Source: Kiritimatiellia bacterium
GTDB taxonomy: Bacteria; Verrucomicrobiota; Kiritimatiellia; RFP12; JAAYLN01
Assembly (NCBI GenBank): GCA_017962605.1
Contig: JAGCUY010000070.1
Span: 2,095-66,094, forward strand
Direction of reading: 5' to 3'
DNA: 64,000 nt
Position 1 is the stretch's first letter. Each line of letters begins with the position of its first letter. The position numbers and the translations under genes are program-made. The notes beneath the pieces were generated by a model. The model made no database searches. It was not told the origin of the DNA and was given only the letters and a program-made list of their open reading frames with translations. Positions 4,376 to 57,731 of this stretch are shown in pieces.

Positions 4376-4446
4376 ACTTCCCAACCTCCCAACTTTTCAA
4401 CCTCCCAACTTTTCAACTTCCCAACTTTTCAACTTTTCAACTCCTC
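4376..4446. repeat. tandem octamer repeat (CCAACTTTTCAAC... = (GTTGRRAR)n on the other strand)
   Basis: cttcccaacctcccaacttttcaacctcccaacttttcaacttcccaacttttcaacttttcaactcc read directly. The same family occurs at 28560-28720, 42538-42650 and 52250-52310. Confidence 0.8.
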
Positions 4447-9925: not shown

Positions 9926-9989
9926 CGAAAGTTGCACTTTTTTCTGGTCTTTGATAGTATTGAAAGCCAATTTTTTGGAAGGACAAAAC

Positions 9990-11689: not shown

Positions 11690-12340
11690 TTGCTTGTCGA
11701 TGTTGGATTACGGTGCGGAAAAGTCTTTTGACTACGGCACTGAAATGTCGCTAGACTACGGCACGGAAATATCGCTAGACTACGGTGCGGAATAGTCTTC
11801 GGTAAGGCAAGCACACCATACTAATCACTAGCTACTAACGACTAACTACTAACGACTAACCATCCCCAGCGCTCCGCGTCAAACATCTAAACATTCAAGG
11901 CGCGAACGCGCCAAACCTCCCAGGCGCGCCAGCGCCAAACTTCGCCCGAAGGGCTCACCCTTTCACAAGACCACGGTGCGGAAAAGTCTTTTGACTACGG
12001 TTCGGGATGTCATTGGATTACGGATAGGAAATTTGGCTATACTTCGGTGCGGAAAGGTCTTTTGACTACGGTTCGGGATGTCATTGGATTACGGATAGGA
12101 AATTTGGCTAGACTTCGGTGCGGAAAGACAATTAGACCATGGAGCGTAAACATCAATAGACCATGGTTCGGAAAAAACTTTGGATCATGTTTCGGAAAAG
12201 TCGATAGACTATACAGTGCGGGAATGTCGATAGACCATGGTGCGGAAACATCGATAGACTACGGGTCGGAAAGGTCGCTAGACCACGGTGCGGAGAAGTC
12301 GATAGATTACAGTGCAGAAAGGTATTTGATAGGGGATGCA
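11690..12340. repeat. degenerate 24-bp direct tandem repeat array (about 19 units, consensus GGTGCGGAAANRTCGMTAGACTAC), with an internal near-perfect duplication of about 70 bp
   Basis: Units read directly (ggtgcggaaaagtcttttgactac / ggcactgaaatgtcgctagactac / ggcacggaaatatcgctagactac ... ggtgcggagaagtcgatagattac). The segment 11975-12040 is duplicated at 12043-12110. Lies in the convergent intergenic region between putP and the large secreted-protein gene. Confidence 0.8.
11878..11946. repeat. REP-like palindromic element (GGCGCGAACGCGCC / GGCGCGCCAGCGCC cores), copy A
   Basis: tcaaacatctaaacattcaaggcgcgaacgcgccaaacctcccaggcgcgccagcgccaaacttcgcc. Its reverse complement is nearly identical to 34018-34090. 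Confidence 0.6.
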
Positions 12341-16161: not shown

Positions 16162-18228
16162 TCAAAGCAGAATACTCTGTTTTAAAGCATTCCAGTCCTT
16201 TTCGTTCAGCGTATTCACACCAGAATTTGTCACTCGGCCCTTTGCATCAAAGTATAGATCGAGTTCACCTCCTCCGATTGGTGACTGAAAACTCAACCTT
16301 ATATGGTAATCAGAGAATGCTTTTGCAGAAACGAGTTGGAGAGGCTTGCCCTTCAGAGATTGCAAGATGCGAGCGACTATTGTTTCGTGTTGCGGACGGA
16401 CACTAATTTCTGGCTCGGCAACATCTGATTGTTCGGCTTCCTCCCCAAAGACTTCTCCTGTCTTTTTACCAACCAAAGAAGACAAGCGCCTTCGTGCTGC
16501 ATCATCAAGGCCATCGACATGGTTTTCAATGTGGGTAATCATGGCATTCTTGCGGTATATGACATCAACATATCCCGTTTTGTCTTTGCCTTGAACATGT
16601 ATCCGATACCGAGAGGAAAGCTCTTCGATTTGTCCCAATGTCAATCCAATAGATCGAATAACTTCATCGATTGCCGATGACGTCCTTTGAACACAAGTAT
16701 CCACTTCTACAGCCTTATCATAAGACTTATTAGACGCGAAAACATTAGACAAAGCGTCAATATGCGGAGAATTGGCAACGAATAAGTGTTCCTTGGCGCG
16801 TGTTGTAACAGTGTATGCCCAGCGGAAGAAATAACTACTCATGAGATTTAATCCACAATTGTAGTCCGCCCATACATAATTCCATTCACCACCCTGTGAC
16901 TTGTGGCCTGTAACGGCATAGCCGAATTTTACAATTGGTGCGCGAAGCCAAGGCAACTCTGCCATTTTTTCTTTAACCAATTTGTCCCAAAACAGCTTTT
17001 TGCTTCGGTCTTTTCGGAAATCGGGATATTTCTTTCGCAAAATTTCTTCTGCAAAATGTTTTACCCCATTGTAGAGTCCCATTTGGGCAAAACAATCATG
17101 TTCATCCCATTCGGAAAGAATTATGGGTGTAACATTTATCCAGATGTTATCGACCTGACCACGTTCGGGTTCATAAGTCCAACGCAGAGACATCCTCTTA
17201 AACGTGTATGTGAAGGTGAAAGTCTTTTCACTTTCTTTTGGGCGATAATACCCTTGCAAAGAAAAAGTTTCCCCGAAAGTGTTCACAACAGTGAGAAAGT
17301 CGCCATTGAAGAACTGCACCTTCTCTCCAGATGGAAGAAGAATGCGTGTGTTTCTGATGGATAGAAGCCTTTCTCCGTATTCCGGCAATTTGCCAAAATG
17401 CCCCAAAAAACCTCGAATTACAGCATTGTATTCTTGTACTTTGGCATTAGTATGGGCAATGGCAATCTTTTCGTCTATTGAATCCTTCCAATCGGGAACG
17501 ACAGACAATGTCTCTTCAGAGACCATTGAGACATCCTCGTGCGAGGTAAATGAGAAACGATTGAAGTCTTTTGCTTCAAGCGCTGAGCGCAACCTTGTCG
17601 CCTCAGCAAGGATGCCACTCCCTTTGCTTTGACGGAATACCTCGGTAAGTTCTATTACAGTCGGTTTAAATGAGGTTAATTCCTCTATCTTTTCCGCATC
17701 CAGGGCAGGAGGAGTCTCGCATTGCTCCATGACAGGAGGAAGCTGGAAAGAGTCTCCGACGAAAAAAAGAATGTTTGACGTATTTTGAGTCTTAATTCCA
17801 GAATACTGAATCAAATCCCCCAAAAGAGAACCACTGCCGAATTGAAACAACTCACGATCATTATCATGCTTGGAAAGACCGACCATCGAGGCTTCGTCTA
17901 TGATAAAAGCCGTGTTTTCAACATCCTTGTCATCCTTTAGTGGGAAAATCCATTTCAGCGCATCGTCTTGCTCGTCCCGGATTGGTTCATTCACAATGTT
18001 GAAGATTCCTGAATGGATAGTTGAAGTATCAAATCCTGTTCTCTTGTGTAGAACCATCGCAGCCCGACCCGTAGGAGCCATCAGCATCGGGAAGAGTCCG
18101 CGTTCTTGAAGAACTGGCACAAGCGAACGGATAAGGGTTGTTTTACCAGTACCAGCGGCACCCCGGATGATGAAACAGCGGGTACCAGCATCAAGCGCAT
18201 GCAAAATAGTGTCAAGAGGATTTCTCAT
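16162..18228 (-). CDS. SF1B RecD/Pif1-like DNA helicase (AAA_30 + UvrD_C_2-type) with about 200-aa C-terminal extension
   Basis: Motifs I GAAGTGKTT, Ia MAPTGRAA, II IIDEASMV, III VGDSFQLPPV, IV VFRQS, V YAVTGHKSQGGEWNYVW, VI YTVTTRAKEHL. Start codon lies 2 nt after the RT stop. Low-GC gene. Confidence 0.75.
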   Translation of the reverse strand: MRNPLDTILHALDAGTRCFIIRGAAGTGKTTLIRSLVPVLQERGLFPMLMAPTGRAAMVLHKRTGFDTSTIHSGIFNIVNEPIRDEQDDALKWIFPLKDDKDVENTAFIIDEASMVGLSKHDNDRELFQFGSGSLLGDLIQYSGIKTQNTSNILFFVGDSFQLPPVMEQCETPPALDAEKIEELTSFKPTVIELTEVFRQSKGSGILAEATRLRSALEAKDFNRFSFTSHEDVSMVSEETLSVVPDWKDSIDEKIAIAHTNAKVQEYNAVIRGFLGHFGKLPEYGERLLSIRNTRILLPSGEKVQFFNGDFLTVVNTFGETFSLQGYYRPKESEKTFTFTYTFKRMSLRWTYEPERGQVDNIWINVTPIILSEWDEHDCFAQMGLYNGVKHFAEEILRKKYPDFRKDRSKKLFWDKLVKEKMAELPWLRAPIVKFGYAVTGHKSQGGEWNYVWADYNCGLNLMSSYFFRWAYTVTTRAKEHLFVANSPHIDALSNVFASNKSYDKAVEVDTCVQRTSSAIDEVIRSIGLTLGQIEELSSRYRIHVQGKDKTGYVDVIYRKNAMITHIENHVDGLDDAARRRLSSLVGKKTGEVFGEEAEQSDVAEPEISVRPQHETIVARILQSLKGKPLQLVSAKAFSDYHIRLSFQSPIGGGELDLYFDAKGRVTNSGVNTLNEKDWNALKQSILL

Positions 18229-18230
18229 GG

Positions 18231-20069
18231 CTATAGGTCTCCATAAATGCCGAAATTGCTACCAGATTTTTCTTTGCAATAGTAGTCTTGAATCTCTACC
18301 CTTGTTAATCCCTTGAAAGAGCCATAGTAGCTAAATGGCGCTCCATAGTACCCTCGTTTAATTGTCAAGGTCGTGCTGTCGTTTACGGAAAGGTCTTTGT
18401 TGCCATTATCGCAGTCTATCGCCGGAGTTGCGGGATGCTGTTTCCGCCACTCTCTCTTCATGGCCTTTTTCGCCAGTTTCAGAACAGAGTTGCGTGTTCT
18501 ATCGAGGTTTTTAAGTTGAGACACTACTGAAGGACAAGACGAAATGTGGGGCAGAAATACCGCCAGCCAACTTCTGGCAAATCTTGCATTAGCCGGACGA
18601 TCAATCCTTCCCACGCCAATGGCTGTTAGACGCAATTGGAAAACCTTGAAGAGGTCATACCAGGTAAATCCATTCCTAAACTGGGATTGCGCGTCTTTGA
18701 GCATACGAGTAAGTCGCGTCTTTTCCATGTACATTTTATCCTGATGCTTTTTTATAGTTTCCTTTTTTATGCGGACTGCTCCATCATATCGTATCTGATG
18801 GCCCAGAAAACTAATCCATGGCGTACCAGGGCGTCCTAATCCAGTCTCCTTCCAGGCAATGGGGCCTTTTGATTTTTCGGTGAAGTACGCCGATGAATAC
18901 CTCGCACTTTTAGCTATGGGGTGTGTCGGTAGTTTTAATCGTTTCACAGCATCCAAATACCTGTCAAGAGCCTCCTTGCACTTCTTTTTTTCGGGATGTA
19001 CGATAATTATGTCATCGCAAAATCTTGCATAAAACAAGTTCTCATCTGCATCAGCCATAACAGCGCGGTCGGCTTCATCCATGACGATGTTAGCCAAAAG
19101 TGGTGAAAGCGCACCGCCTTGCGGAATCCCTATTTCATGTGGATTCACATCTTCGTCCCCATAAACTGATTGCAGGACACTAATCGGCACACGATCTACA
19201 CACTCGCGCTTAGCAATGATTTCCGGGTCTTCGTATTCGTCAAGATTGCGTGGAAATGCGTAAACATTCAAATATGCTTCAAGCACTTTCCGAGCGCGGT
19301 TGTCAACACCTTGCGGGGCACGGGCGGAAAAAATGTCGAAAGCTCGCCTAATTATATCGTGGTTGATTACGTCAAAGAACTTTTGAATATCGCAATCTGC
19401 CACATAGAGAGTTTGGTTCGTAAAGCGTTTTCTATATTCGATAAGATTGTTTATGGCCGTATGGATGGAATACTTTTTCCCGTTGCGGCGAAAAGCATAG
19501 CAACAGTTCAGCAAATGTGAATCAAAAACATTCCGAAGATATGCGGCAGTTTTTGAAAGAATTACCCGATCTTTTGAATCGGTAAAACACGACAGGCATC
19601 GGTATGAAGATTTCTTGTTCTCTTCGTCCATCGTTTTTACACGTCCTGTATTCTTCCGAATCAACATCAACTCAGGCCTTCTAAATGCGAATTCGCCGAT
19701 GGTTATAGTTTTTTGTATGTCCATGGCAAATGCAACCAGATTTCTGCCCCATTGGGAGTCTTTGAGCTTTCCGGCTTTCAGCATTCCAGAAATAACGCGA
19801 ATGATTGACAATGTGGCAACATCATTTTGCGATAAACCTTTTCGGGCTTCTTTGCCGCCCCGTCGCCACAGACGGCGCGGCGGAAGCATCTTAGTAATGG
19901 ATTCTTCACTTATCTTACTCTTGGGTTCAAGTTCCTTTCCGGCGTCATCGTGCAAAACCAGCCGGTCCCAATACATATGGTATCTATGGCGTGAAGAGGC
20001 AATACGAGTCCGCAAGGCGCACAGCACCTTTACGATGTCATCAAAACTGAAATACTGCTCAAAATCCAT
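18231..20069 (-). CDS. reverse transcriptase (612 aa) with long N- and C-terminal extensions; not intron/retron/DGR-like in context
   Basis: RT motifs 1-2 (CCYAFRRNGKK ... YVADCDIQKFFDVINHD), 4 (IGIPQGGALSPLLANIVMDEAD), 5 (YARFCDDIIIV = YxDD box), 7 (ISFLGHQIRYDG). About 190 aa precede motif 1 and about 200 aa follow the thumb. Low-GC. Confidence 0.8.
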   Translation of the reverse strand: MDFEQYFSFDDIVKVLCALRTRIASSRHRYHMYWDRLVLHDDAGKELEPKSKISEESITKMLPPRRLWRRGGKEARKGLSQNDVATLSIIRVISGMLKAGKLKDSQWGRNLVAFAMDIQKTITIGEFAFRRPELMLIRKNTGRVKTMDEENKKSSYRCLSCFTDSKDRVILSKTAAYLRNVFDSHLLNCCYAFRRNGKKYSIHTAINNLIEYRKRFTNQTLYVADCDIQKFFDVINHDIIRRAFDIFSARAPQGVDNRARKVLEAYLNVYAFPRNLDEYEDPEIIAKRECVDRVPISVLQSVYGDEDVNPHEIGIPQGGALSPLLANIVMDEADRAVMADADENLFYARFCDDIIIVHPEKKKCKEALDRYLDAVKRLKLPTHPIAKSARYSSAYFTEKSKGPIAWKETGLGRPGTPWISFLGHQIRYDGAVRIKKETIKKHQDKMYMEKTRLTRMLKDAQSQFRNGFTWYDLFKVFQLRLTAIGVGRIDRPANARFARSWLAVFLPHISSCPSVVSQLKNLDRTRNSVLKLAKKAMKREWRKQHPATPAIDCDNGNKDLSVNDSTTLTIKRGYYGAPFSYYGSFKGLTRVEIQDYYCKEKSGSNFGIYGDL

Positions 20070-20222
20070 AGGAGAAAAAAAGGAGGCGGCGTCGCGGAAT
20101 TCTACCTAGTTGGCCGCTTTGCGCCCTTTAGGGCGCAGGAATTTGACGCGGGGAACCAATTGGCCTGCAAGCCCCGCCAGAATCACGGTCGTTAGCCGTG
20201 CGCGACGCGCGCCTCCATAAAA
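20070..20222 (-). ncRNA. candidate structured non-coding RNA / regulatory leader immediately upstream of the RT gene
   Basis: 153-nt spacer that is GC-rich inside an AT-rich island. Contains a perfect hairpin TGCGCCC-TTTA-GGGCGCA (about 20119-20136) and further GC palindromes (GCGCGACGCGCGC). No ORF. Confidence 0.25.
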
Positions 20223-22925
20223 TCATTTCACAACCTCCAATGTGACAGCCTTCCACCCAACGCGATCCTTGAGCTTGTCGTAGGATTTCACCGCTACGCC
20301 TCCGATTTCCGTGCCATTTGTTAAGTCCTGAATAAGGCTTTGTGGCACGAAAATATCTTTTGAGTCGCCTGTTCTGTTGCGAACGAAACCATAGTTACGG
20401 CCTTCGGGCCTGTTGAATGTCCCGGAATAAAACATGCCGAAAGAAGGGAACCCTTCGTACTTGACATTTATTATTTCAAGAATATATGATTTGCCGCTTT
20501 TTGCGCTTCTTTCAAGAGCCAATTCGCATACCGTTCCGCTAGGCATGTTAGCCAGACATGGAAGCTTTGCCCAGTCACCTGTGCATGTTTCGCCATTGTT
20601 GCCGATTGTAAACTCTGAACGCCCACGACGTTTGTCTTGATAAGATAGAATGGCAATCTGCTTGGGGTAAATGTCCCATGGGACTCCCTCCTCTCTTTTC
20701 TCAACCTTGAGGACTCGTAGCCGTTCGCCAACCACTTCCGTCCAGATTTTCACGGGCATTCCTGGCGTAGCCATGCCAAGTACGGGAAATCGTCTTGTTT
20801 CAACGCGAACTTCGGTTGAATTTCCAAAATCTGCAAAAATCTTGGCAATTTTCTCATTGCGTTCCTTGTCAACATAGCATGTCATGAGAACGGCATTAAT
20901 GAAAGGCTGGCCGGCAAACGCGATTTCATCTGCCTTGGCCGCAAACTCATGGTACACGTCTTCATTACTATTTGTTGGAGTTGGATCGGTGGTAAACCGC
21001 ATCTTCTCGCCATCTGGAATTGCCTTTATTGTAACCAACTGTTTTTTTAGCAATTCGTCTTTTTTTTGCCGGAGTTGGTAGAGACTCCATTTTTTTGCGG
21101 TTCGGATCTCTTTTACAATCCTCAATTCACATAGAGCCTCAGGTATTTTTCCCATTTCAATGAAGGCGTCAGCAAGCATTTCATGGACGCCTACAAGATA
21201 CGAACTGTCTTTTGCCGGACAAAGCGCTGCGCGGCAAAGGCAGGCAAAGAATTTCTCCCTGTCATCGTGAAATGTTTCGGCAAGAAGTTGCCAAGTCCAA
21301 AACTGAGCCGATTTTTTGCGAGTTATTTTCGCTATATACTCTCTGGCCTTGACGGATTCGCCGCTTTCAACAAGCAGTTTTCCATAATAGAATGGAAACC
21401 ATTCCTGCGAAGGGTATCTTTCCATGGCCATCCTGATGAAATCCAATATCCATTTGTGGCCTACCACGAACGCAAGGTTTTCACTACGGCCTTTTTGTTT
21501 TGCACACTTATAAAGCAATCCTACTACAGTTTCAACAAGAGAAGGAAATGATTTGTTCGGATTGTCTTTCGGGATGAACGGCGCGTAATCTTCTTCGGCG
21601 AAATTGGAGACATCCCAATTTTTGACAAAATGGAGGAATTGAATGGCCAATTGTTCTTGGATATTCTCACCCGCAGCCTTTACTATCTTTGCATAGATTC
21701 GCAGATATTGCGAATAGGCAACCGAAGGCTTCGGAACGGCCGAGCAGCAATTCACCAAATTGAAACCTTCGACGACGCAATTTGTGACGGCATCTTCCTG
21801 CCCGTTCTTTTCTCGTCCCTCTGGGAAAACGTCATTGAGAATTTTCTTCAATGACGCAGGAGTCAAATCTGCCGCATTTGGATTCCAGCCTTTCTTCAAG
21901 GCTTCGTCTATTGTTCGATAAAGCGCCCAGATTGCACTGGTCTGGGCTTTCTCGCTTTCTGGGTTTAGCGGAATGGCGGCACAGTATTCCCTGAAGGCAC
22001 GGGGATAATCACCAAGCTTGTCACAGACAGAAGCCAATGCCATGTGTGCAAGGAAACTTGTTGGCTGTTCACTAATAAGCGATTCTGCCTTTGACAATGC
22101 TTCTGCCAGCGACTCCGGGTTTGCTGCCAATGCTTTTATTTCACCAGTCCCACTCAAAAACTGGTCAGCTTTTTTTAAGTCTATTGGTCTTGTCGCTTTG
22201 ACTTTGCTTTCTCCTGCGGCTTCCTCATTAAGAGAGAGGTTACGCATTTCGTTGGCAAAGAACTCGACTAGCTTTCGATTCTTAAGGTTTTCCATCGATT
22301 GTTTTAGGCAATCATGGAGCGTCCAAAACATATCTAGTTGGCATGAGGTATCATCACATTTATCAAGCAGTTTTGCCCTGCATTCCTCGAATTGTGCCGA
22401 AAGGTGTTCCTCGCTTGAAAGAGCCTCTGAGGCATAATGTTGAATCAGCTTTTTCAAAATCATGTCATATTCACTATCTCCAAGAGAAAGCCCTTGAAGG
22501 ATAGAGACGAATCTTTCTCGCGTTTTCTGAAGAGTTTCTTTTTGTGTTTTTCCAAGAACATGTAGAGACTTAAGGGCGGCGATTGCGTTGCATCCAGCCC
22601 AGCCAACTGCGCTCGCATTTTTAGCGGTGTCGAGATTGTAGAGGTCGCAGGCCATCAGGAACGCTATAATGCGACATGATTGCAATTCAATATTGTCAGA
22701 GCCACAAGTAGTAATTGCAGCTTTTGCCTCCCGTCTTATGGCCGTGCAAACCTTGAATGCATCCTGACGGTTCGCTGCTGCATATGTTATCCATGACTTT
22801 TGCACTTCATCAGCATAGATCCCATTCAAGGCTGCAATGACATCTACGTCTTTGCGCGTCGCAAGGCCGGAAGCTAGCAACTGCTGCAAATCATCTAGTT
22901 TCCATGTTGTCGTGAAGGTTGCCAT
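20223..22925 (-). CDS. 900-aa alpha-helical (TPR-like) protein with C-terminal cold-shock-domain-like OB fold
   Basis: Mostly helical, repeat-like N-terminal 650 aa. C-terminus NYGFVRNRTGDSKDIFVPQSLIQDLTNGTEIGGVAVKSYDKLKDRVGWKAV parallels the CspA RNP1/RNP2 motifs (KGFGFI ... DVFVHFSAI). No nucleotide-binding motifs. Low-GC. Confidence 0.45.
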   Translation of the reverse strand: MATFTTTWKLDDLQQLLASGLATRKDVDVIAALNGIYADEVQKSWITYAAANRQDAFKVCTAIRREAKAAITTCGSDNIELQSCRIIAFLMACDLYNLDTAKNASAVGWAGCNAIAALKSLHVLGKTQKETLQKTRERFVSILQGLSLGDSEYDMILKKLIQHYASEALSSEEHLSAQFEECRAKLLDKCDDTSCQLDMFWTLHDCLKQSMENLKNRKLVEFFANEMRNLSLNEEAAGESKVKATRPIDLKKADQFLSGTGEIKALAANPESLAEALSKAESLISEQPTSFLAHMALASVCDKLGDYPRAFREYCAAIPLNPESEKAQTSAIWALYRTIDEALKKGWNPNAADLTPASLKKILNDVFPEGREKNGQEDAVTNCVVEGFNLVNCCSAVPKPSVAYSQYLRIYAKIVKAAGENIQEQLAIQFLHFVKNWDVSNFAEEDYAPFIPKDNPNKSFPSLVETVVGLLYKCAKQKGRSENLAFVVGHKWILDFIRMAMERYPSQEWFPFYYGKLLVESGESVKAREYIAKITRKKSAQFWTWQLLAETFHDDREKFFACLCRAALCPAKDSSYLVGVHEMLADAFIEMGKIPEALCELRIVKEIRTAKKWSLYQLRQKKDELLKKQLVTIKAIPDGEKMRFTTDPTPTNSNEDVYHEFAAKADEIAFAGQPFINAVLMTCYVDKERNEKIAKIFADFGNSTEVRVETRRFPVLGMATPGMPVKIWTEVVGERLRVLKVEKREEGVPWDIYPKQIAILSYQDKRRGRSEFTIGNNGETCTGDWAKLPCLANMPSGTVCELALERSAKSGKSYILEIINVKYEGFPSFGMFYSGTFNRPEGRNYGFVRNRTGDSKDIFVPQSLIQDLTNGTEIGGVAVKSYDKLKDRVGWKAVTLEVVK

Positions 22926-22961: not shown

Positions 22962-24170
22962 CTAACCCTCAAAAACTAATCGTATCTTCGGACTTGGGCG
23001 TATACATTTTTCATACGGACGTGGGATGTCAATATCGCTCCCCTCAAAAAAACGTTTCACGTGGTCAACTATCTGACAACGTCTAAACTTCGCATCATCT
23101 CGTTCCAATGAACCATCACCTATGTCCCCGCTATAAGGGTGAAAGGTATTTAAATGGCCATTTTCATCACAGATATCAAGGCCTTCGGGAATCCTCATTG
23201 AGTAAATGCCGCCAACAATTGCACGGTTGTGAAACGTATGCGTCCTCCTAGAGTTATAATCCTTTTTGAGTAGCAAAACACGTATCAACAAACCCATTGC
23301 ATTGTTGTGCCTTATTTTATTGGTTCTTCCCATTTCTTCAATCAGATTAATCACTTCTAAGGCTGAAAACTTTTCATATTCCACAGGGTATTTCGAGATT
23401 ATCGTCAGTTCCGTAATATCAGAATTTGACATAAATGGTTGCAACAACGCTTTTGAGGAATGCTTCCATCGGTTTTGATTGTCAATGTGTTCGGAAGTAT
23501 TATCATCATTAGGTTTCGCAATTGCGCTCCAGTACCGGTCGGCAAGCACTACTTGTCCTTCTGCTGCGGCACAAAAAGCATTCATATAGTCATAAAAAGA
23601 GTTTTTGGAACTATCATCATATGTTTGTTCTCCTATCCATTTTTTACGCAATATTTCTGTATCACTTTCTTCATAGTTATCTATTGATTCACAGACGAAA
23701 GATTGTCGTAAGTTGTTTATTGATAACCCTTCACTAAACTTGTCGGTTATTATAACGAAGCCCTTGATTTCTCGTGGGGTGGCAATACGCCGAGTATGTT
23801 TGGTCCATGCTTGGATACATTCTTTCAAATAGTCATTATCATCGCCCGTGGACTCGTTAATCGCTACTATATGTTTTCGATCTTCATAAAGGCTATCATA
23901 ATTTTTGAGAACGTTGCAAAGATTGCCAAAAAAGCCGCCTTCTTCTAGTTCGGCATATTCCTCCGCATATTGTTCTGCAATGGTCGTAATTAAAGCAAGA
24001 GGTTTGCGCGCTTTACTAAACTCGTCAAGAATGAGAATACCATTGGCTTCAATAGCATTGCGAAGATTGACAAGTCTGCTTTGAAGTTGTACGGCATACA
24101 CTATGTTATTCGCCGCCTTATCGATGCAACGGCGAATATGCATCCAATCTATGAGATACTGAACAATCAC
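22962..24170 (-). CDS. hypothetical 402-aa protein, partner of the adjacent ABC-type ATPase
   Basis: GTGA start/stop overlap with the upstream ATPase gene. Very AT-rich. No confident domain. C-terminal C-x-x-N-G-H...H...C...D-H region is a possible but unconvincing nuclease-like motif. Confidence 0.4.
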   Translation of the reverse strand: MIVQYLIDWMHIRRCIDKAANNIVYAVQLQSRLVNLRNAIEANGILILDEFSKARKPLALITTIAEQYAEEYAELEEGGFFGNLCNVLKNYDSLYEDRKHIVAINESTGDDNDYLKECIQAWTKHTRRIATPREIKGFVIITDKFSEGLSINNLRQSFVCESIDNYEESDTEILRKKWIGEQTYDDSSKNSFYDYMNAFCAAAEGQVVLADRYWSAIAKPNDDNTSEHIDNQNRWKHSSKALLQPFMSNSDITELTIISKYPVEYEKFSALEVINLIEEMGRTNKIRHNNAMGLLIRVLLLKKDYNSRRTHTFHNRAIVGGIYSMRIPEGLDICDENGHLNTFHPYSGDIGDGSLERDDAKFRRCQIVDHVKRFFEGSDIDIPRPYEKCIRPSPKIRLVFEG

Positions 24171-25228
24171 CTCACGCCCTCAATTCCGAAGAATTCATCG
24201 ACAACTCTTGTTCGAGCAGTAAAGAATCCACCCGGCCATCTCGTTCGATAGTTTCCATAGGAGTCGGTCTTTATCTCATCCACTATACTACCCTCTTCGG
24301 TTTTTGTAACATATAGCACGGAAAGGTCATCTGGCGTAATCGTTCCCATCCTAAGGAAGTTTTTTAGTTTCAAAGCCATTAGTTCGCTATGGCTCTCAAC
24401 AATAAGCTGTCTGTCTCGATTCTCATTAGCGGTCTTGAAAATGAAATTCATGAGACTGGATATTTGCCGCTCGTTGACATGGGATTCCGGCTCTTCAAGT
24501 GCAAAAAGATGTTTTTGCCCCGCCCTCCATTTGCAAAGGCTCAGTCCTGTCTCATACAATCCGTCTATCCCTGCTCCTGTATTGTCTCGCACGACAGTTA
24601 TACCAAAAGTTTTGTCTTTAAGTCTGCTAAAGTCAAGGGCCTCATAAGGGACATTTAGTTCCGAAAAAAACTCATTAACAAATTTGATTGCATCCGTCCC
24701 AAGAAGGAGTGCTTCGTCCAGACTCGTTTTTTTCGTTTCGTCGATTCTGGTCCGAATTGGACGAGCGGCTTCTTGGTGAATCATTTCTGGAACGCCATTG
24801 ACATACGGATCTTTCAAACTCTGATGAATACGTTTCCTCTCTTCAACATCGGTCGGCCTTTCATAAAAGCTATGGACAGCCCCTGAATATGGAGTTTCAT
24901 AGCCGATGTACTTTAGAGAATGTCCGTTTTCACTTTCTCGCCCTTCTTGCCTTGCAGAATACTCATATTTTGGGGAGTGTCCCAAAGAATCTGCGGATGT
25001 TGTTATCCTCAATTTGATTTCCAGATTTGTGTCGCCTGAAAAAACATACTCTTTAAAATTAGCACGAATGGCGGCTACTTCGTCGTTGCATATCATGCGC
25101 AACAATTGAAGGAAAGTGCTTTTCCCGGCGCTATTGTCACCAAAGATAAAGTTGATTCGCCGCAGAGAAAAATCTACTCCTGGGTCACCATAGCACTTGA
25201 AGTTTTTCAGTTGAATTCGCCTAATCAT
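24167..25228 (-). CDS. ABC-type (AAA_15/AAA_21, SMC-head-like) ATPase, defence-associated type
   Basis: MIRRIQLKNFKCYG N-terminus typical of the family. Walker A GDNSAGKST. Walker B/D-loop LFALEEPESHV ... LIVESHS. Likely start at 25228 (MIRR) rather than the track start at 25318. Confidence 0.65.
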   Translation of the reverse strand: MIRRIQLKNFKCYGDPGVDFSLRRINFIFGDNSAGKSTFLQLLRMICNDEVAAIRANFKEYVFSGDTNLEIKLRITTSADSLGHSPKYEYSARQEGRESENGHSLKYIGYETPYSGAVHSFYERPTDVEERKRIHQSLKDPYVNGVPEMIHQEAARPIRTRIDETKKTSLDEALLLGTDAIKFVNEFFSELNVPYEALDFSRLKDKTFGITVVRDNTGAGIDGLYETGLSLCKWRAGQKHLFALEEPESHVNERQISSLMNFIFKTANENRDRQLIVESHSELMALKLKNFLRMGTITPDDLSVLYVTKTEEGSIVDEIKTDSYGNYRTRWPGGFFTARTRVVDEFFGIEGVR

Positions 25229-25262
25229 GAGCAAACCTCTCCTCCAAAAACAAACGATAAGA

Positions 25263-26417
25263 TTATACCAAAAAATGGCTTTCTTTGATAAGGTCTGGAC
25301 ATCCGCAGACATCCGCAACTATTTCCCTGTTCCTCCACTTGATTCGTTGCAGGGGGAATGTGACAGGGGCGTTGCGCTTGGGGACAAGTGTTTCCACGGC
25401 TGTGAAGCCGGCGGCGGCAAGGCTTTTGCGGAGGTTCGACATGGTCTTGGTCAGGTCTTCCGCGAACTTCTCGTTGGAGAAGAGCGAACCCTCCTGGAAA
25501 GTGGCTATCCAGTCGCATTTGCCGGATGCATGGTTTTCCGTGCCATGCAGGGCGAGTAGTCGCCTATGGAGGTCACGGATAGGGCACCCGCCAGCAATCA
25601 AAAGGAGCGTCGCAAAGCATGGGCGGCTCATGGGGACTGTCGCCCCGTCGAGTGTCACCCAGCCATTCCATGCGTCGATTTCAATCTCAGGATAAACAAC
25701 GGCTGGCGGTGCGACTTCCTGAACCCGCGAAACAAGTGTTCCGTAATTTGGCGGCAGCGACTTGAACTTCTCCTGATACCACCCACGCATGCGCACATAC
25801 GGCACCTCGAACAGCTCGCTTTTCAGCGAAGCACCCGCATGACTCTTTCCCGTAAGCAGGGACTTGTAGCGCGTTCCCTTTTTGGGGAAGAAGAAGGGCG
25901 GCTCACTTCCACCCTCCAATGCTGGCGGCAGCAACACATGGTAAACCTTGTCGCAATCGCGGCCGAGAAGCGTCATGCAGGAAAACATGAGGGCGCTCAT
26001 TGTCTTTCGTCCGCCTGCAATCGATACGTGGAGTTCCGTCCCGCAATCCTCTGTGAATTGGCGTAGTTGCGAGAGCATGAAGTTTGCTGCGCGGAGATTG
26101 TCGTCGCCCGTCCTGAGATCGTCGATTTCGTTGCCATGCGCATCAGGGATGGCGCGAATGGATGCGCTCCCGAAAACGAGACGCCCTTCGACATCAAGCC
26201 CGCTCCGCTTCATGCAAGCCAACATGTCGTTCCAAACGCCCCCTTCGAGAAGCGCTTCGCAAAGACATCTCTTCCCGCTCTTCGTCGTGATGGCGACGAC
26301 CTCGTCAGGCACAACCGGAACATCACAATGGGCCAGCGCCCATGCGGTCTCCGTGAGAATCGACGGCGTCGTGCCAACAACGGCCACCAAAACTGCCTTC
26401 TTGTCCTTTTCCATCAC
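25263..26417 (-). CDS. CARF-domain protein (CRISPR-associated NE0113-like Rossmann sensor) with uncharacterised C-terminal domain
   Basis: Strand-1 motif VLVAVVGTTPSILTETAWAL and strand-4 motif LHVSIAGGRKTMSA match the two CARF signatures. 384 aa. GC-rich, host-like composition. Directly upstream of the AT-rich island on the same strand. Confidence 0.45.
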   Translation of the reverse strand: MMEKDKKAVLVAVVGTTPSILTETAWALAHCDVPVVPDEVVAITTKSGKRCLCEALLEGGVWNDMLACMKRSGLDVEGRLVFGSASIRAIPDAHGNEIDDLRTGDDNLRAANFMLSQLRQFTEDCGTELHVSIAGGRKTMSALMFSCMTLLGRDCDKVYHVLLPPALEGGSEPPFFFPKKGTRYKSLLTGKSHAGASLKSELFEVPYVRMRGWYQEKFKSLPPNYGTLVSRVQEVAPPAVVYPEIEIDAWNGWVTLDGATVPMSRPCFATLLLIAGGCPIRDLHRRLLALHGTENHASGKCDWIATFQEGSLFSNEKFAEDLTKTMSNLRKSLAAAGFTAVETLVPKRNAPVTFPLQRIKWRNREIVADVCGCPDLIKESHFLV

Positions 26418-27676
26418 TATTCCCCCTCTAGCAGAAAGTCGTAGGCGTTGACTTGGTGGACGCCATTGTTCGAGGCTGGCAGATCCATGTCGAGCGTAAT
26501 CAGCGTCTTGGGGTAGTGGTCGCGTATCGCCAAAAGAGGCGCGTATTCGCGCATCCGCGTCGTTTCGTCCCGCACTGTCTCCGCAACCTGGTAATAGCGG
26601 ATGTCGTCGCCATCCCGCGTGACAAAATCGACTTCTCGGCCGTCATGTTGCCCAACCATGACATTTCCCGAACGGCGCAGCAACTCAAGATAGACGATAT
26701 TCTCCAGCATGCGCCCCGAATCGCCGGAACGGTTGCCCAGAAGACGGTAACGCAATCCCATGTCAACGGCATAGTATTTGCACCCGCTTGTGAGTACATC
26801 CCGTCCGCGAATGTCATAGCGCGGGGCCTTTAGGAAAAGGAAGGCGTCGCACAAGGCATCAACATAGCCCTCGACCGTGTTGCCGTTCGTCCTGGCACCG
26901 GCGGAGGAAAGCGAGGTGGCGATGTTCCTGAGGCTCGTCAGATTGCCGATATTGTCCAAGAGGAAACGAGCTATGCGGTCGACCAGCCCCGCGTCCGTCA
27001 TCTTCCGCCGTCGCAGAACATCCTTCACCAGAACGGTATTGTAGATGCCGTCAAGATACTCGCCTACAAGCCTCGCATCGCCCCGCAGTGACGGAACATA
27101 CGGAAAAGAACCGAAGCGAAGGTAATCTAGGTAATGACGGGTGTAGTCCCCTGTCGCGCCGATGGCGTTGCAGTATTCGCGGAATGACAGCGGCTGCATC
27201 TTGATTTCAACATAGCGGCCGGAGAGAAATGTCGCGAGGTCGCCTGAAAGCATGTTGGCGTTCGAACCCGTGACATAGACGTCGATGTTCTTGCGCGAAT
27301 GGAGTCCGTCAACCAGCTTCTCGAACTCCGGCAAACGCTGAACCTCGTCAAGGAAGACATATGTCTTTCCATGAGTGGCAATCTGCTGCTTGATGAGATT
27401 CCAAGCATCGCGCCATGACGAAAACTCCGGCGTATCGGGATCCTCGAAGTTGAGGGCGACAATCCGGCTGTCAGGTACGCCGGCGCGCTTCAAACTGTCA
27501 CGAAAGATTTCAAGGATCGTGGACTTTCCGCAACGGCGGACGCCTGTCACGACTTTGACAAGATCATGGTCTCGCCAATGTTCCAACTGGCGCACGTAAT
27601 ACGGCCTGCCGAAGATAGTCTTTTCGCTGTTGTCCATAAGCAACTTCCCGATATAAAAACACTTCAATTGAATCAC
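26417..27676 (-). CDS. AAA+ ATPase, AAA_14 + DUF4143 family
   Basis: Walker A GVRRCGKST, Walker B VFLDEVQ, and a C-terminal region typical of DUF4143 ATP-binding proteins. 1-nt overlap with the CARF gene. Confidence 0.65.
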   Translation of the reverse strand: MIQLKCFYIGKLLMDNSEKTIFGRPYYVRQLEHWRDHDLVKVVTGVRRCGKSTILEIFRDSLKRAGVPDSRIVALNFEDPDTPEFSSWRDAWNLIKQQIATHGKTYVFLDEVQRLPEFEKLVDGLHSRKNIDVYVTGSNANMLSGDLATFLSGRYVEIKMQPLSFREYCNAIGATGDYTRHYLDYLRFGSFPYVPSLRGDARLVGEYLDGIYNTVLVKDVLRRRKMTDAGLVDRIARFLLDNIGNLTSLRNIATSLSSAGARTNGNTVEGYVDALCDAFLFLKAPRYDIRGRDVLTSGCKYYAVDMGLRYRLLGNRSGDSGRMLENIVYLELLRRSGNVMVGQHDGREVDFVTRDGDDIRYYQVAETVRDETTRMREYAPLLAIRDHYPKTLITLDMDLPASNNGVHQVNAYDFLLEGE

Positions 27677-27734: not shown

Positions 27735-27762
27735 GGAAATGCTAATCTCGATTAGCATTTCA
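27735..27762 (-). terminator. perfect 11-bp inverted repeat (AAATGCTAATC-N3-GATTAGCATTT) followed by a T-rich tract on the minus strand
   Basis: Read directly. Sits at the 3' end of the ferredoxin-like gene and upstream of the DUF4143 ATPase gene. Could be a terminator or an operator. Confidence 0.3.
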
Positions 27763-28559: not shown

Positions 28560-28720
28560 TTAGGAAGCAAATGGAAGTTCTTGAAGTTGAAAAGTTGAGA
28601 GGTTGAAAGGTTGAAAAGTTGAAAAGTTAGGCGCTGACGCACGACAAATAATCTCACACAGAGGCACAAAGACACAGAGGAGAAGTTGAGAGGTTGAGAG
28701 GTGGGGCGAAAGGGCCATGC
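28560..28720. repeat. tandem octamer repeats (GTTGARAR)n with an embedded REP-like fragment (AGGCGCTGACGCACG)
   Basis: gaagttgaaaagttgagaggttgaaaggttgaaaagttgaaaagttaggcgctgacgc...gagaagttgagaggttgagaggtgggg. Confidence 0.75.
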
Positions 28721-31520: not shown

Positions 31521-32966
31521 TTACCGCCGTTTGACGGCGGTGCCGCCGCTCAGTTTTGCCACGAGGTCGTAGCCTTCGTGGCCGGTGATTTCGACTTCGG
31601 CAAAGTCGCCAGGCCGGAGGCTGGCGGGAGGATTTGCAATCAGCGTGGCGCCATCGACGTCGGGCGCCTGGAATTCGGCGCGGGCGACGGCGCGGTCGCC
31701 GTCAACTTGCTCGACGAGGACGCGGGCGCGGATGCCGGCCATCGAGGCGAGACGGCGCTCCACGATCTCCTGCTGAGCCTCCATGAGACGGCTGCGGCGG
31801 AGCTCGGCCATTTCCGGCGCGACGGTGCCGTCCATCTTCGCGGCCGGAGTGCCCTCTTCGGGCGAGAAGGTGAATACGCCAAGCTGGTCGAACTCCGAGG
31901 CGCGGACGAAGTCGAGGAGGTGCTCGAAGTGGGCCTCGGTCTCGCCGGGGAAGCCGACGATGAAGGTGGTGCGCAGGGCGATACCTGGGACGGCGGCGCG
32001 GAGGCGGCCGACGATGGAGCCGATGTGGCGCACTGTGTCGGCGCGGCGCATGGCGCGTAGCATCTCAGGGTGGCTGTGCTGGAGCGGGAGGTCGATGTAG
32101 CGGCAGACATGGCGGGCGGAGGCCATGACGGAGAGAAGTTCGTCGCTGATGAGCGACGGATAGCCGTAGAGGAGGCGGAGCCAGAAGTCGCCGCGAATCC
32201 GGTCGAGGCTGGTGAGGAGCGAGGCGAGCGATGTGCCGTCGCGCAGGTCGCGGCCGTAGGCGGTGACATCCTGCGCGACGACATCGAGTTCGCGGATGCC
32301 GGAGCGGACTAGCGCCCTGGCCTCGGCAAGTATGTCGCGAGGCCGGCGCGAGCGCAGATGGCCGCGGATGGCGGGGATGGCGCAGTAGGCGCATGCGTGG
32401 TTGCAGCCATCGGCGACCTTGAGGAAGGCGTGGACTCCGCCGGTGATGGTGAAGTCGGGAACTGGCGGCTCAAAGAGGGTGTCGCGGGCGGTGGAGACGA
32501 GGACGGGGGCGGCCGCTGGCGCGGCCGCCGTGGAAGGCGCGGTTTGAAGAACCGCGCCGACAAGACGGGAGGCGACAGACTTAGGACGGTCGGGAGCTGA
32601 GAGGGAGCGGAGAAGTGCGGGGAGGTCGAAGAGGTGGTCTATGCCGAGCCAGCCATCGACTTCCGGGTATTTGGCGGCGAGGGAGGCTCCGTAGCGCTGC
32701 GGAAGGCAACCTGTAACAACGACGAACCGCGCCTTGCCCGAACGCTTGAGGTCGCATGCGCGGAGAATTTCGTCGTTGGCCTCCTGTCGTGCCGCCTCAA
32801 TGAAGGCGCATGTGTTCACGAGAATGCAGTCGGCGCGATCAGGATTTGACGACAGCGCGATGCCCTCTGTGAGGAGGGCGCCTGCCATTACCTGAAGATC
32901 GACGGCGTTCTTGGCGCAGCCCAGGCTGACAAGCCCCACCGAAAACTGGCGCCTTTTATTCGGCAT
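31521..32966 (-). CDS. rimO: ribosomal protein S12 methylthiotransferase (MiaB-family radical SAM MTTase)
   Basis: MTTase N-domain, radical-SAM CxxxCxxC (DGCNHACAYCAIP), C-terminal TRAM. Carries a Pro/Ala-rich insertion that contains the hairpin repeat element. Confidence 0.7.
   Translation of the reverse strand: MPNKRRQFSVGLVSLGCAKNAVDLQVMAGALLTEGIALSSNPDRADCILVNTCAFIEAARQEANDEILRACDLKRSGKARFVVVTGCLPQRYGASLAAKYPEVDGWLGIDHLFDLPALLRSLSAPDRPKSVASRLVGAVLQTAPSTAAAPAAAPVLVSTARDTLFEPPVPDFTITGGVHAFLKVADGCNHACAYCAIPAIRGHLRSRRPRDILAEARALVRSGIRELDVVAQDVTAYGRDLRDGTSLASLLTSLDRIRGDFWLRLLYGYPSLISDELLSVMASARHVCRYIDLPLQHSHPEMLRAMRRADTVRHIGSIVGRLRAAVPGIALRTTFIVGFPGETEAHFEHLLDFVRASEFDQLGVFTFSPEEGTPAAKMDGTVAPEMAELRRSRLMEAQQEIVERRLASMAGIRARVLVEQVDGDRAVARAEFQAPDVDGATLIANPPASLRPGDFAEVEITGHEGYDLVAKLSGGTAVKRR
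32527..32590. repeat. GC-rich hairpin repeat element (GGCGCGGTT-TGAAG-AACCGCGCC core), copy 1, in frame within rimO
   Basis: gccgtggaaggcgcggtttgaagaaccgcgccgacaagacgggaggcgacag. Encodes ASRLVGAVLQTAPSTA on the minus strand. Confidence 0.8.
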
Positions 32967-33972
32967 AGCTGTCGGGGGGTGGAAGAAGGTTGTCGGTGAG
33001 GGCGCTGCCGACTATGGTGATTCGGGCCTGTGAACTGGGGGCATCCAGGCTTTCGCTAGCAGGTTCGGCAGATTCGGCTACGGTGGACGGAGCCGGTGGG
33101 GCAGGAGGTGTGGGCGTGGCTACGCTGGACGGAGCCGGCGAATCAGGTTGGGGGGCCACGGCTATGTTGGATGGAGCCGGTGAATCTGGATTGGAGGGTT
33201 CGGGGCCGCCGATGGAGAGCGTGCAGATCCAGGCTGCGGCGGCCAAAACCAGCACTGCCGCGCATGCACGCTGGAAAAGGGGAGTGCGCGCAATGCGGCC
33301 AGCGGCTGTGATGGCTTGCGAGAGGATGGCCTTGGCCTGTGAACTGAGGGCCTTCGTGCGATTGCGGGAAGGCGCAGTTACGCGGGACGGGGCTGGCGAC
33401 TCAGGCCGCGAGGGGGCGACCTCTGGCGCGACCGCCGTGGCAGGCGCGGTTTGAAGAACCGCGCCGACAGGACGGGAACCGACAGAATCAGGGCGAGTGG
33501 GGGCGGGGGGTGGAGTTGGGCGCGGTGTTTCCTCGAAGAGATCGCCTTGGGCCTGTGTGCTGGCGCTTGTGGGCGCGGATACGCTGGACGGAGCTGGGGA
33601 ATCAGGATGGGAGGGAGATACGCGGGACGGAGCCCGCGAATCAGGACGGGAAGGGGCTGGCTCAGGGCGGGCGGGGGCGCGGTGGCTGGAGAACTTCTGC
33701 GGCGGGGCCTTGGTCTTGGGCAGGGCGGTGTGGGCCTCTACCCATGCCTGGTATTCCTGTGCGAATGTTTCGCGGAGGGGGGCGGCGTCCACGCCGTAGT
33801 ATTTGGCGAGGATTTTTATGAAGCCGCTGCCGTAAATGGCCGCAGAGATTCTGGAATAGTCGCCGGCCTCAAATTCCCTGAGGACATGCGGGCCGATGTG
33901 GGTTTCCTCGGAAAGCTTTTCAATCGTGAGGCCTTTTGCCTCGCGCAGTTTTACAAGTTCAGTGCCTAACAT
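32956..33972 (-). CDS. RodZ-like protein: N-terminal XRE-type HTH, Pro-rich linker, one TM, periplasmic C-terminus
   Basis: MLGTELVKLREAKGLTIEKLSEETHIGPHVLREFEAGDY resembles the RodZ/HTH_25 N-terminus. TM LFQRACAAVLVLAAAAWICTL. Linkers are built from the repeat elements. Confidence 0.5.
   Translation of the reverse strand: MLGTELVKLREAKGLTIEKLSEETHIGPHVLREFEAGDYSRISAAIYGSGFIKILAKYYGVDAAPLRETFAQEYQAWVEAHTALPKTKAPPQKFSSHRAPARPEPAPSRPDSRAPSRVSPSHPDSPAPSSVSAPTSASTQAQGDLFEETPRPTPPPAPTRPDSVGSRPVGAVLQTAPATAVAPEVAPSRPESPAPSRVTAPSRNRTKALSSQAKAILSQAITAAGRIARTPLFQRACAAVLVLAAAAWICTLSIGGPEPSNPDSPAPSNIAVAPQPDSPAPSSVATPTPPAPPAPSTVAESAEPASESLDAPSSQARITIVGSALTDNLLPPPDSYAE
33075..33205. repeat. in-frame tandem repeats (GGACGGAGCCGGYGAATCAGG) inside the rodZ-like gene
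   Basis: ctacggtggacggagccggtggggcagg...gctggacggagccggcgaatcaggttgggg...ggatggagccggtgaatctggattggaggg. Confidence 0.7.
33434..33477. repeat. GC-rich hairpin repeat element, copy 2, in frame within the rodZ-like gene
   Basis: gccgtggcaggcgcggtttgaagaaccgcgccgacaggacggga. Encodes SRPVGAVLQTAPATA. Confidence 0.8.
33580..33675. repeat. in-frame tandem repeats (GGACGGAGCYSGGGAATCAGGA) inside the rodZ-like gene
   Basis: gatacgctggacggagctggggaatcaggatgggagggagatacgcgggacggagcccgcgaatcaggacgggaagggg. Confidence 0.7.
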
Positions 33973-42537: not shown

Positions 42538-42650
42538 AGTTGGGAAGTTGGGAAGTTGGGAAGTTGAAAGGTTGGGAAGTTGAAAAGTTGAAAGGTAGAA
42601 AGGTTGAAAAGTTGGGAAGGGGAAGTTTAGATGTTTGGAAGGTAGGAAGG
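42538..42650. repeat. tandem octamer repeats (GTTGGGAA / GTTGAAAG)n
   Basis: aagttgggaagttgggaagttgaaaggttgggaagttgaaaagttgaaaggtagaaaggttgaaaagttgggaagg. Confidence 0.8.
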
Positions 42651-52249: not shown

Positions 52250-52310
52250 AAGGGTTGAAAAGTTGAGAGGTTGAAAAGTTGGGAAGTTGAGAGGTTGAGA
52301 GGTTGAAACG
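52250..52310. repeat. tandem octamer repeats (GTTGARAR)n
   Basis: agggttgaaaagttgagaggttgaaaagttgggaagttgagaggttgagaggttgaaacgg. Confidence 0.8.
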
Positions 52311-57705: not shown

Positions 57706-57731
57706 ATTATTACCAACAGGCTTGCAAGACC

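Follow-up and report, generated by a model that had tools for sequence, protein, structure and literature searches.

The defense island examined here raises the question of what a CARF-domain sensor does at the head of a gene set that has nothing to do with CRISPR. The island lies in a 64-kb stretch of a Kiritimatiellia bacterium genome (contig JAGCUY010000070.1), referred to below as the window, and directly upstream of it is a gene for a stand-alone CARF protein. An initial annotation had pointed out this protein, had called its C terminus uncharacterized but possibly a Csa3-like winged helix-turn-helix (wHTH), and had offered two alternative roles for it, crosstalk with a distant signaling system or ligand-gated regulation of the adjacent island. 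Combining profile searches, structure prediction, and comparison with relatives, we consider it probable that the protein is a two-domain, ligand-gated transcription factor whose gene carries an embedded operator-promoter, here wired to an island of ATPase, TOTE, and reverse transcriptase (RT) RT-UG39 genes.

Domain architecture of the CARF protein

The open reading frame (ORF) comprises 384 amino acids if read from a GTG at position 26417 (25263..26417, minus strand). The most likely start, however, is the ATG at 26414, which lies 2 nt past the TAG stop of the upstream DUF4143 gene and is preceded by a GAGGGGGA ribosome-binding site; the resulting 383-amino-acid protein is 100% identical to NCBI protein P0001, described as a “TIGR02584 family CRISPR-associated protein” from a Kiritimatiellae bacterium. 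Scores far above the cutoffs confirmed that this is a CARF protein: 146.6 bits for NCBIfam TIGR02584 (curated cutoff, 80.65), 99 bits for Pfam PF09623 (cutoff, 23), and 188 bits for the PADLOC model CARF5--CARF. Of the two profiles that had been proposed for a check, TIGR02584 thus held up, while the matching Pfam family is PF09623 and not PF09651. The other NCBIfam match, to Csx14, was weak, and the Csa3 model did not match the protein. On these profiles, the N-terminal ∼215 residues can be assigned firmly to the NE0113 CARF family (TIGR02584/PF09623), CARF5 clade.

Both CARF signature motifs noticed earlier are present, GTTPSILTE as motif I (the G-[ST]-[ST]-P loop after strand 1) and SIAGGRKTMSAL as motif II (type S-x-A-G-G-x-K-T, after strand 4), and both are invariant or nearly so among 48 homologues (G14, T15, P17 ... 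S131-I-A-G-G-R-K137) and 30 locus-derived orthologues. The lysine of SIAGGRKT aligns with K106 of Cad1, a solved protein placed in the CARF5 clade by the literature; in Cad1, mutation of K106 abolishes cyclic tetra-adenylate (cA4) binding and cleavage (PMC12669630). In a full-length AlphaFold2 (AF2) model, residues 241 to 370 are confident and the CARF half is poor (predicted local distance difference test [pLDDT], 35 to 50); the corresponding Foldseek search was weak, with Cad1 as the best match (E = 1.3e-3), followed by Cam1 and Can1.

The protein has more than 700 homologues of ∼377 amino acids and 60 to 67% identity. Because these align end to end, the C-terminal ∼170 residues constitute a conserved domain and can no longer be called uncharacterized. 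A domain-only AF2 model of this part reached a pLDDT of 82.6, without strands assigned in the C-terminal hairpin of the winged helix, and ∼20 of its top 35 Foldseek matches were DNA-binding domains of the OmpR family (BaeR, VanR, PrrA, AdeR, ArlR, PhoB, RstA, VicR, CpxR, KdpE, and CadC). A profile search of the PDB with the C-terminal sequences gave coronavirus protease noise, the sole relevant match being the RstA DNA-binding domain (E = 1.5). The assignment was carried by profile-profile alignment with hhalign against an OmpR/PhoB reference set consisting of PhoB (verified against PDB 1QQI/1GXP), ArlR, and two response regulators from the fetched loci. With 13 close C-terminal sequences the result was 51% (P = 1.5e-4). 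After addition of 22 divergent members, obtained from an exhaustive search of 1.84 billion representative proteins, the 35-sequence alignment gave 95.4% (P = 1.7e-8) over 91 columns (PhoB positions 3 to 93 of 103), with the N-terminal sheet, α1 (LSxxEFAxL), and the recognition helix (xxSxLRKKL) all aligned in register; reversed sequences, used as a control, scored 0.3%. By sequence and model, the C-terminal half is thus a divergent OmpR/PhoB-type winged-helix domain that is predicted to bind DNA, with EDLTKTMSNLRKSL as its candidate recognition helix and an insertion of roughly 25 residues separating helices 2 and 3. The earlier idea of a winged helix therefore stands, while its attribution to the Csa3 type does not.

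This domain occurs in just 60 representative clusters among the 1.84 billion proteins, and 27 of 29 diverse carriers also contain PF09623; given this rarity and association, we regard the protein as a dedicated fusion of CARF and OmpR/PhoB-type winged-helix domains. Proteins with and without CRISPR linkage show the same degree of conservation in their CARF motifs and recognition helix.

A tandem repeat and a likely promoter at the 3' end of the gene

We collected the surroundings of the gene from ten places found by contig look-ups and from 33 loci of species-representative genomes, almost all of them gut and rumen metagenome-assembled genomes of Kiritimatiellae, Verrucomicrobia, and Lentisphaerae, and called and clustered the neighboring genes. 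Alignment of the junctions downstream of the CARF gene revealed a tandem 10-nt repeat, GCGGATRTCT-GCGGATRTCY, in the last CARF codons at nearly every locus. In the window it reads GCGGATGTCTGCGGATGTCC (25316..25297), lies within the codons for A-D-V-C-G-C, and is unique in the 64 kb with 3 mismatches allowed (chance expectation, 0.04). The 36 nonredundant sources (590 kb) contain 37 co-oriented sites with at most 3 mismatches, where ∼0.4 would be expected by chance if the window expectation is scaled by length. Called CARF gene ends account for 21 of these sites; of the 16 found elsewhere, 12 are clearly intergenic, several of them with three tandem units, and the remaining 4 are gene ends that the gene caller had missed.

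The distance from the repeat to a promoter is fixed. Exactly 29 nt past the repeat, 34 of the 37 sites have a -10-type hexamer (A2 and T6), which matches TATAAT at 4.5 of 6 positions on average, whereas any other offset yields such a hexamer at no more than 14 of 37 sites. The window follows this rule to the nucleotide: the -10 box TATAAT of promoter P1 (25267..25262) lies 29 nt past the repeat and includes the CARF stop codon TAA (25265..25263), the promoter scan scored 10 of 12 matches with the TG extension, and after another ∼33 nt comes the start of the ATPase gene (25228), for which GGAGGAGAGG provides the ribosome-binding site. Assuming a transcription start ∼7 nt past the -10 box, the repeat would be located at roughly -61 to -42. 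Tandem direct repeats near the -35 region, with a period of ∼10 to 11 bp, are the established targets of OmpR/PhoB domains, and the CARF-wHTH gene is the sole DNA-binding gene common to every locus with the repeat.

Several features separate the repeat from the peptide that it encodes. Its third-codon positions are frozen (A, C, and T at 37/37 sites each and G at 35/37), whereas 42 conserved four-fold-degenerate codons elsewhere in the gene, taken as a control, have a median third-base entropy of 1.7 bits and a minimum of 1.26 bits. The reading frame differs between the two units, and the variable R position leads to Cys-to-Tyr changes, which are tolerated. For these reasons, and because noncoding copies exist as well, we interpret the repeat as a signal in the DNA itself that does not simply follow from the encoded peptide A-D-V-C-G-C. 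In CRISPR loci, one site is located upstream of cas10-cmr3-4-5-6-1 and a second, intergenic one upstream of cas1-cas2 and the array (L025 and L030); in non-CRISPR loci, the intergenic copies lie upstream of small-ORF/RT operons and other small genes.

Two other places for an operator were considered and discarded. Aligning the region upstream of the operon by eye gave ordinary sigma-70 promoters only (TTTGCA-17-TGGTATAAT) and no common repeat, and three matches in phages of IMG/VR had neither the -10 box at +29 nor a CARF gene, which corresponds to chance level.

Genomic contexts in related bacteria

The CARF-wHTH gene is always the first gene of a tightly packed, co-directional set, or the second behind a variable partner. 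At ∼15 loci the set is a type III-B CRISPR operon with a cyclase-competent Cas10, in which the CARF gene is followed by Cas10/Cmr2, Cmr3, Cmr4, Cmr5, Cmr6, and Cmr1, often with Csx1, Cas1-Cas2, and a CRISPR array next; the Cas10 of these linked loci keeps its GGDD motif in 17 of 18 cases. At ∼15 further loci, the window among them, the orthologue heads lower-GC, non-CRISPR defense cassettes of three types: type B with a HEPN-like protein, UvrD-like helicases, DUF1848, and an RT; type C with PDC-S31, TmtA, a MkoA-like helicase, and an RT; and type D, found in the window and in L033, with an AAA_15/DUF3696 ATPase, a 402-amino-acid protein, a TOTE protein (DUF7017 plus S1CSD-TOTE), and RT_UG39, to which the window adds a RecD-like helicase. 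A GC step past the CARF gene was observed at every non-CRISPR locus but not at type III-B loci. In a neighbor-joining tree, type III-B-linked proteins occupy the deep branches, with the remaining types interspersed between them, suggesting that the downstream cassette has been exchanged repeatedly.

Upstream partners are each limited to a subset of loci. A frequent one, cluster c2, is a DUF4062-HATPase_c_4-MarR-like wHTH protein whose gene overlaps the start of the CARF gene in many loci; it is missing from most type III-B loci and from the window, where a 15.5-bit fragment match was the only trace. The DUF4143 ATPase gene is the upstream neighbor in 2 of ∼30 distinct contexts (the window and L031), which rules out the conserved housekeeping operon that the initial annotation had considered.

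Some loci showed additional peculiarities. L004 (∼8150 to 8340) and L015 (∼8400 to 8560) contain remnants of the CARF promoter and first ∼35 codons (e.g., GMGISPVALTNAAYALAHC) upstream of c2, itself upstream of the full-length CARF gene; these look like scars of within-family recombination. L032 carries two CARF-wHTH genes 9 kb apart (9980 to 11176 and 20060 to 21148), the first heading a type III-B operon and the second starting a further gene set just past that operon, where the locus is truncated. Many of the linked type III-B systems (gene after the CARF gene in L016, L017, L020, L022, L025 to L027, L030, and L032) encode a short Cas10 of ∼460 to 510 amino acids, with GGDD kept and the HD region lacking, and in several loci a conserved protein of 128 to 142 amino acids without a family match (ending in ...GWHVLKLTW) precedes it.

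A model for signal-gated expression of the island

In the mechanism that we propose, the NE0113-type CARF domain would sense a cyclic oligoadenylate (cOA), most likely cA4, and the OmpR/PhoB-type winged helix would bind the tandem 10-bp repeat in the last codons of its own gene, so that occupancy of the repeat would control transcription of whatever follows, via the promoter whose -10 box overlaps the stop codon. In what appears to be the ancestral setting, a type III-B cmr operon would lie downstream, and cas1-cas2 would be under the control of another copy of the site. In the window, the cmr genes would have been replaced by a horizontally acquired, AT-richer cassette of five genes (ATPase, 402-amino-acid protein, TOTE, RT-UG39, and helicase), coupling a nucleotide alarm signal, whose probable source is a type III CRISPR system encoded at another place in the genome, to the expression of a non-CRISPR defense system. 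The equal conservation of CARF motifs and recognition helix in both contexts favors a cOA-gated factor that acts on its own operator-promoter, and because the ligand-site motifs are as well conserved without CRISPR linkage, a type III signal from elsewhere in the genome is the likeliest input. Crosstalk and local regulation, offered earlier as alternatives, are accordingly compatible, and the second of them is well supported by the winged helix together with the operator-promoter at the junction of gene and island.

The domain identities, the cis element, its fixed geometry, the finding that coding constraint does not account for it, and the exchange of cassettes come directly out of the computational comparisons. 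From them we infer that the CARF-wHTH protein, not another factor, binds the repeat, and likewise the identity of the ligand, its source, and the sign of regulation. As to that sign, we lean slightly toward activation over repression, since a good -35 element is lacking from many of these promoters.

A number of observations weigh against this model. The input signal is unaccounted for within the window: hidden Markov models (HMMs) of Cas10, Cmr3, Cmr4, Cmr5, Cmr6, and Cmr1, built from the related loci, found nothing in its six-frame translation, leaving the 64 kb without a cyclase, and neither Tandem Repeats Finder (TRF), which found no spacer-containing array, nor a k-mer detector that did find arrays in four related type III-B loci revealed a CRISPR array there, in agreement with what had been noted from the sequence. 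The CARF half is poorly modeled, single Foldseek matches of the C-terminal model are nonsignificant (E, 0.26 to 7; TM score normalized by target length, 0.35 to 0.58), and Pfam Trans_reg_C did not match the C-terminal domain at E ≤ 10 (13 C-terminal fragments gave only noise). P1 has a usable -35 element and an extended -10 box, so that this promoter may fire without an activator; it could be constitutive and repressed, in which case the factor would be a repressor, an equally possible role. Inverted repeats are the kind of site to be expected for a symmetric CARF dimer, and a near-palindrome, GGATRTCC, in each repeat unit makes the binding geometry ambiguous. Finally, NCBIfam names TIGR02584 “CRISPR-associated ring nuclease Csm6,” which suggests that the main role of the family might be signal degradation.

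That last point can be extended into an explanation in which the protein serves chiefly as an off-switch, a ring nuclease degrading cOAs, that merely happens to be encoded next to the island and whose winged helix has a structural or minor role, as in Crn1/Sis0811. In keeping with this, Cad1, which has the closest solved CARF domain and likewise belongs to the CARF5 clade, acts as a cA4 ring nuclease; ring nucleases of CARF-HTH architecture are known (PMC9638899); and motif I keeps its conserved Ser/Thr residues. We nevertheless regard it as unlikely, as it would leave unexplained both the operator-promoter geometry at 37 sites, including those at cas1-cas2, and the presence of an intact gene at the head of cassettes that lack a cOA-activated effector. 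Nor are the two truly exclusive: ring-nuclease activity would fit the regulator as a self-resetting switch.

The absence of a cyclase from the window would also be expected if the gene were an orphan relic, i.e., if a type III-B locus had lost its cmr genes and an unrelated cassette had landed in a hot spot, with the CARF gene functionally unlinked to it. The sharp step in GC content and in GC content at third codon positions (GC3) at the 3' end of the gene (0.565/0.65 versus 0.40 to 0.46/0.37 to 0.46), the deep branches occupied by type III-B-linked copies, and the recombination indicated by the 5' gene remnants in L004 and L015 are all in line with such a history. A relic would not, however, be expected to remain full length with intact CARF and recognition-helix motifs in ∼15 independent non-CRISPR contexts and >700 homologues, to preserve, wherever it adjoins a cassette of any type, the operator with a -10 box exactly 29 nt away, or to have secondary operator sites inside non-CRISPR islands upstream of RT operons, and we judge this explanation to be quite improbable. 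Even less credence can be given to the idea of a genuine repeat that is recognized by c2, the DUF4143 ATPase, or a host regulator, while the CARF winged helix acts on another target. c2 does contain a MarR-like wHTH and overlaps the CARF gene start in many loci, and the DUF4143 gene is translationally coupled to the CARF gene in the window, but the restricted distribution of both leaves the CARF-wHTH protein as the only DNA-binding candidate at every repeat-bearing locus, and a 10-bp tandem repeat is the type of site typical of OmpR/PhoB domains.

If the regulator model is correct, a wider and more tentative proposal, possible but short of probable, is that the CARF-OmpR-type regulator and its embedded operator-promoter form a portable “alarm-to-transcription” adaptor, through which cOA from type III systems licenses otherwise silent innate defenses, the 3' end of the gene serving as the cassette-exchange junction. 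The systems licensed in this way would be the RT-UG39/TOTE, helicase/DUF1848/RT, and TmtA/Mokosh-like cassettes, and the sequence-specific sensing of viral RNA by CRISPR would become the trigger for a second, non-CRISPR line of defense.

Relation to known regulators and CARF proteins

The closest functional parallel is provided by Csa3a and Csa3b, archaeal transcription factors of CARF-wHTH architecture, which bind cA4 and govern the cas adaptation genes, the CRISPR arrays, and Cmr expression (PMC8844856, PMC8699464, PMC7480081). Both kinds of protein combine an N-terminal CARF domain with a C-terminal winged helix, have predicted or known sites at cas1-cas2 and cmr promoters, and imply crosstalk from type III signaling to other genes. 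The present protein differs in belonging to the NE0113/CARF5 clade without a match to the Csa3 model, in having an OmpR/PhoB-type domain instead of the Csa3 wHTH, in its bacterial host (Planctomycetes-Verrucomicrobia-Chlamydiae [PVC] group), in the position of its operator in the 3' end of its own gene, and in the repeated reattachment of that gene to non-CRISPR defense cassettes. The best reading of its sequence is therefore a protein that is functionally Csa3-like, yet not a member of the Csa3 family.

By sequence and fold, the nearest solved relative is the CARF-adenosine deaminase Cad1, followed by fold by the CARF-membrane protein Cam1, and the AGG-x-K-T ligand-site motif, including the equivalent of Cad1 K106, is common to them. 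Since the output domain here is a predicted DNA-binding winged helix, unlike the deaminase of Cad1 or the membrane pore of Cam1, the protein is more plausibly a regulator than a toxic effector. With OmpR/PhoB regulators it shares a homologous output domain (N-terminal β-sheet, LSxxEFAxL, and xxSxLRKKL) and tandem direct-repeat sites of ∼10-bp period just upstream of the -35 region, but it has no receiver domain and no phosphorylation, takes its input from CARF, and is too divergent for the Pfam model. Ligand-sensing regulators that head variable defense or repair operons are also known from CapW/BrxR, WYL-wHTH proteins in front of CBASS, BREX, and other defense islands, and from RtcR, a CARF-AAA+ activator of rtcBA (PMC9122588, PMC7790460), the latter being an example of CARF gating of transcription outside CRISPR loci. 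Their sensor and DNA-binding domains (WYL; sigma-54 AAA+) are unrelated to those described here, and CapW/BrxR are repressors transcribed upstream of their targets, whereas the present operator-promoter lies within the coding end of the regulator. Crn1/Sis0811 ring nucleases likewise combine CARF and HTH domains, are type III associated, and may degrade cOA, but they belong to another CARF clade, and no operator or regulon has been described for proteins of that type. Makarova et al. (2014) had predicted that NE0113 proteins “regulate transcription directly,” and according to the Domainator paper many “CARF-only” proteins have HTH/wHTH-like domains.

Leaving aside the 2020 CARF classification (PMC7498327), which was outside our comparison, four features seem to be without precedent: an output domain of the OmpR/PhoB type, the operator with fixed promoter geometry, the two-promoter regulon in CRISPR loci, and the repeated rewiring of the module to non-CRISPR defense cassettes. 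The family, with its CARF5 sensor and OmpR-type domain, would be a bacterial counterpart of Csa3 assembled from different parts, and a concrete 20-bp operator with a defined promoter makes the regulator hypothesis directly testable. The regulation of defense systems is poorly understood, and archaeal Csa3 proteins are, to our knowledge, the only characterized cOA-responsive transcription factors. That the cmr operon has repeatedly given way to non-CRISPR cassettes while regulator and operator stayed the same suggests that type III CRISPR signaling and innate defense are linked by transcriptional crosstalk, as well as a conserved regulatory “head” as a mechanism for content swapping in defense islands; in practical terms, the element could serve as a cOA-inducible expression switch.

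Gene neighborhood and other features of the window

The features of the locus are listed in Table 1. The five island genes, from the ATPase gene to the RecD/PIF1-like helicase gene as the last one, have a GC content of 0.40 to 0.46 and a GC3 of 0.37 to 0.46, compared with 0.61 to 0.67 and about 0.80 to 0.83 for host genes, and the step in the window coincides with the 3' end of the CARF gene. The CARF and DUF4143 genes share an intermediate composition (∼0.56 and 0.65 to 0.68). No att-like direct or inverted repeats flanking the 9-kb low-GC island were found, the 64-kb window contains no tRNA, and Rfam families gave no match over 11 to 29 kb of it. The gene for the 402-amino-acid protein (cluster c20) overlaps the ATPase gene by 4 nt and recurs with it in L033, and its product is probably a partner or effector of the ATPase. 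This protein was also considered as a cyclase encoded in the island and rejected, having neither a family match nor a GGDD/GGDEF motif.

TABLE 1 Features of the CARF locus and the adjacent island (positions in the window)
Feature	Position	Strand	Basis
CARF-wHTH gene, 383 aa	25263..26414	-	ORF list, start context, identity to NCBI P0001, family profiles
CARF domain, residues ∼5-215, NE0113/CARF5 clade	25770..26402	-	Profile coordinates
Predicted OmpR/PhoB-type winged helix, C-terminal, residues ∼240-372	25299..25697	-	AF2, Foldseek, hhalign
Candidate operator GCGGATGTCT GCGGATGTCC, tandem direct repeat, 10-bp period	25297..25316	-	Unique match, recurrence, frozen third positions
Promoter P1: -35-like TTATCA, 18-nt spacer, TG-extended -10 TATAAT	25262..25291	-	Promoter scan
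AAA_15/AAA_21 + DUF3696 ATPase (NsnB/AriA/GajA-like), first low-GC island gene	24167..25228	-	Family profiles, start context
402-aa protein without family match	22962..24170	-	ORF list, family searches
TOTE-type conflict-system protein, TPR + DUF7017 + S1CSD-TOTE-2 (PADLOC PDC-M16B)	20223..22925	-	Profiles
Defense-type reverse transcriptase RT_UG39	18231..20069	-	PADLOC 436.9 bits; RVT_1
RecD/PIF1-like superfamily 1 (SF1) helicase, weak C-terminal TBP-TOTE match (PADLOC PDC-M16A)	16162..18228	-	Profiles; GC step
AAA_14 + DUF4143 ATPase (PADLOC PDC-S01), upstream of CARF gene	26417..27637	-	Profiles, start context

Within the AT-rich island, the 156-nt spacer between the TOTE/M16B and RT_UG39 genes (20070 to 20225, minus strand) is GC rich and without an Rfam match. 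Its predicted fold has a minimum free energy of -69.6 kcal/mol (z = -3.4), and 1 of 200 shuffled sequences folds as well; by analogy with other defense RT systems, it may be an RT-associated noncoding RNA. Just past the 3' end of a 1,228-amino-acid ORF that borders the island, positions 11709 to 12323 are occupied by dense tandem repeats (periods, 24, 48, 71, and 98 nt) with units resembling GGTGCGGAAAAGTCGATAGACCAT, which are not a CRISPR array, because they have no spacers. On the other side, upstream of the DUF4143 gene, a perfect hairpin with an 11-bp stem (GAAATGCTAATC GA GATTAGCATTTC; 27736 to 27761, minus strand) directly follows a ferredoxin-like gene and is itself followed by repeated TGCTAA/TTAGCA half-sites and a TTGACT-17-TTCAAT promoter-like site; this region is a terminator and/or the operator of another regulator.

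Further away, a ∼100-nt element recurs between 31109 and 35882 (32507 to 32606, 33414 to 33513, and 35709 to 35808; 81 to 84% identical), together with related 36- to 42-nt units. These elements are embedded in frame in a row of four genes that are unrelated to one another (SNF2 helicase, MiaB-like enzyme, HTH_25 protein, and FtsK), where they code for low-complexity linkers (PDSPAPS and RPVGAVLQTAP). Lastly, many intergenic regions contain microsatellite-like arrays of 7- to 8-nt units, including AACTTCCC, AAGTTGAA, GAAGTTGG, TGGAAATG, and ATTTGAG (∼20 copies), at positions 4375 to 4442, 28584 to 28628, 42536 to 42649, 50810 to 50898, 52253 to 52308, 54242 to 54388, and 57552 to 57706.

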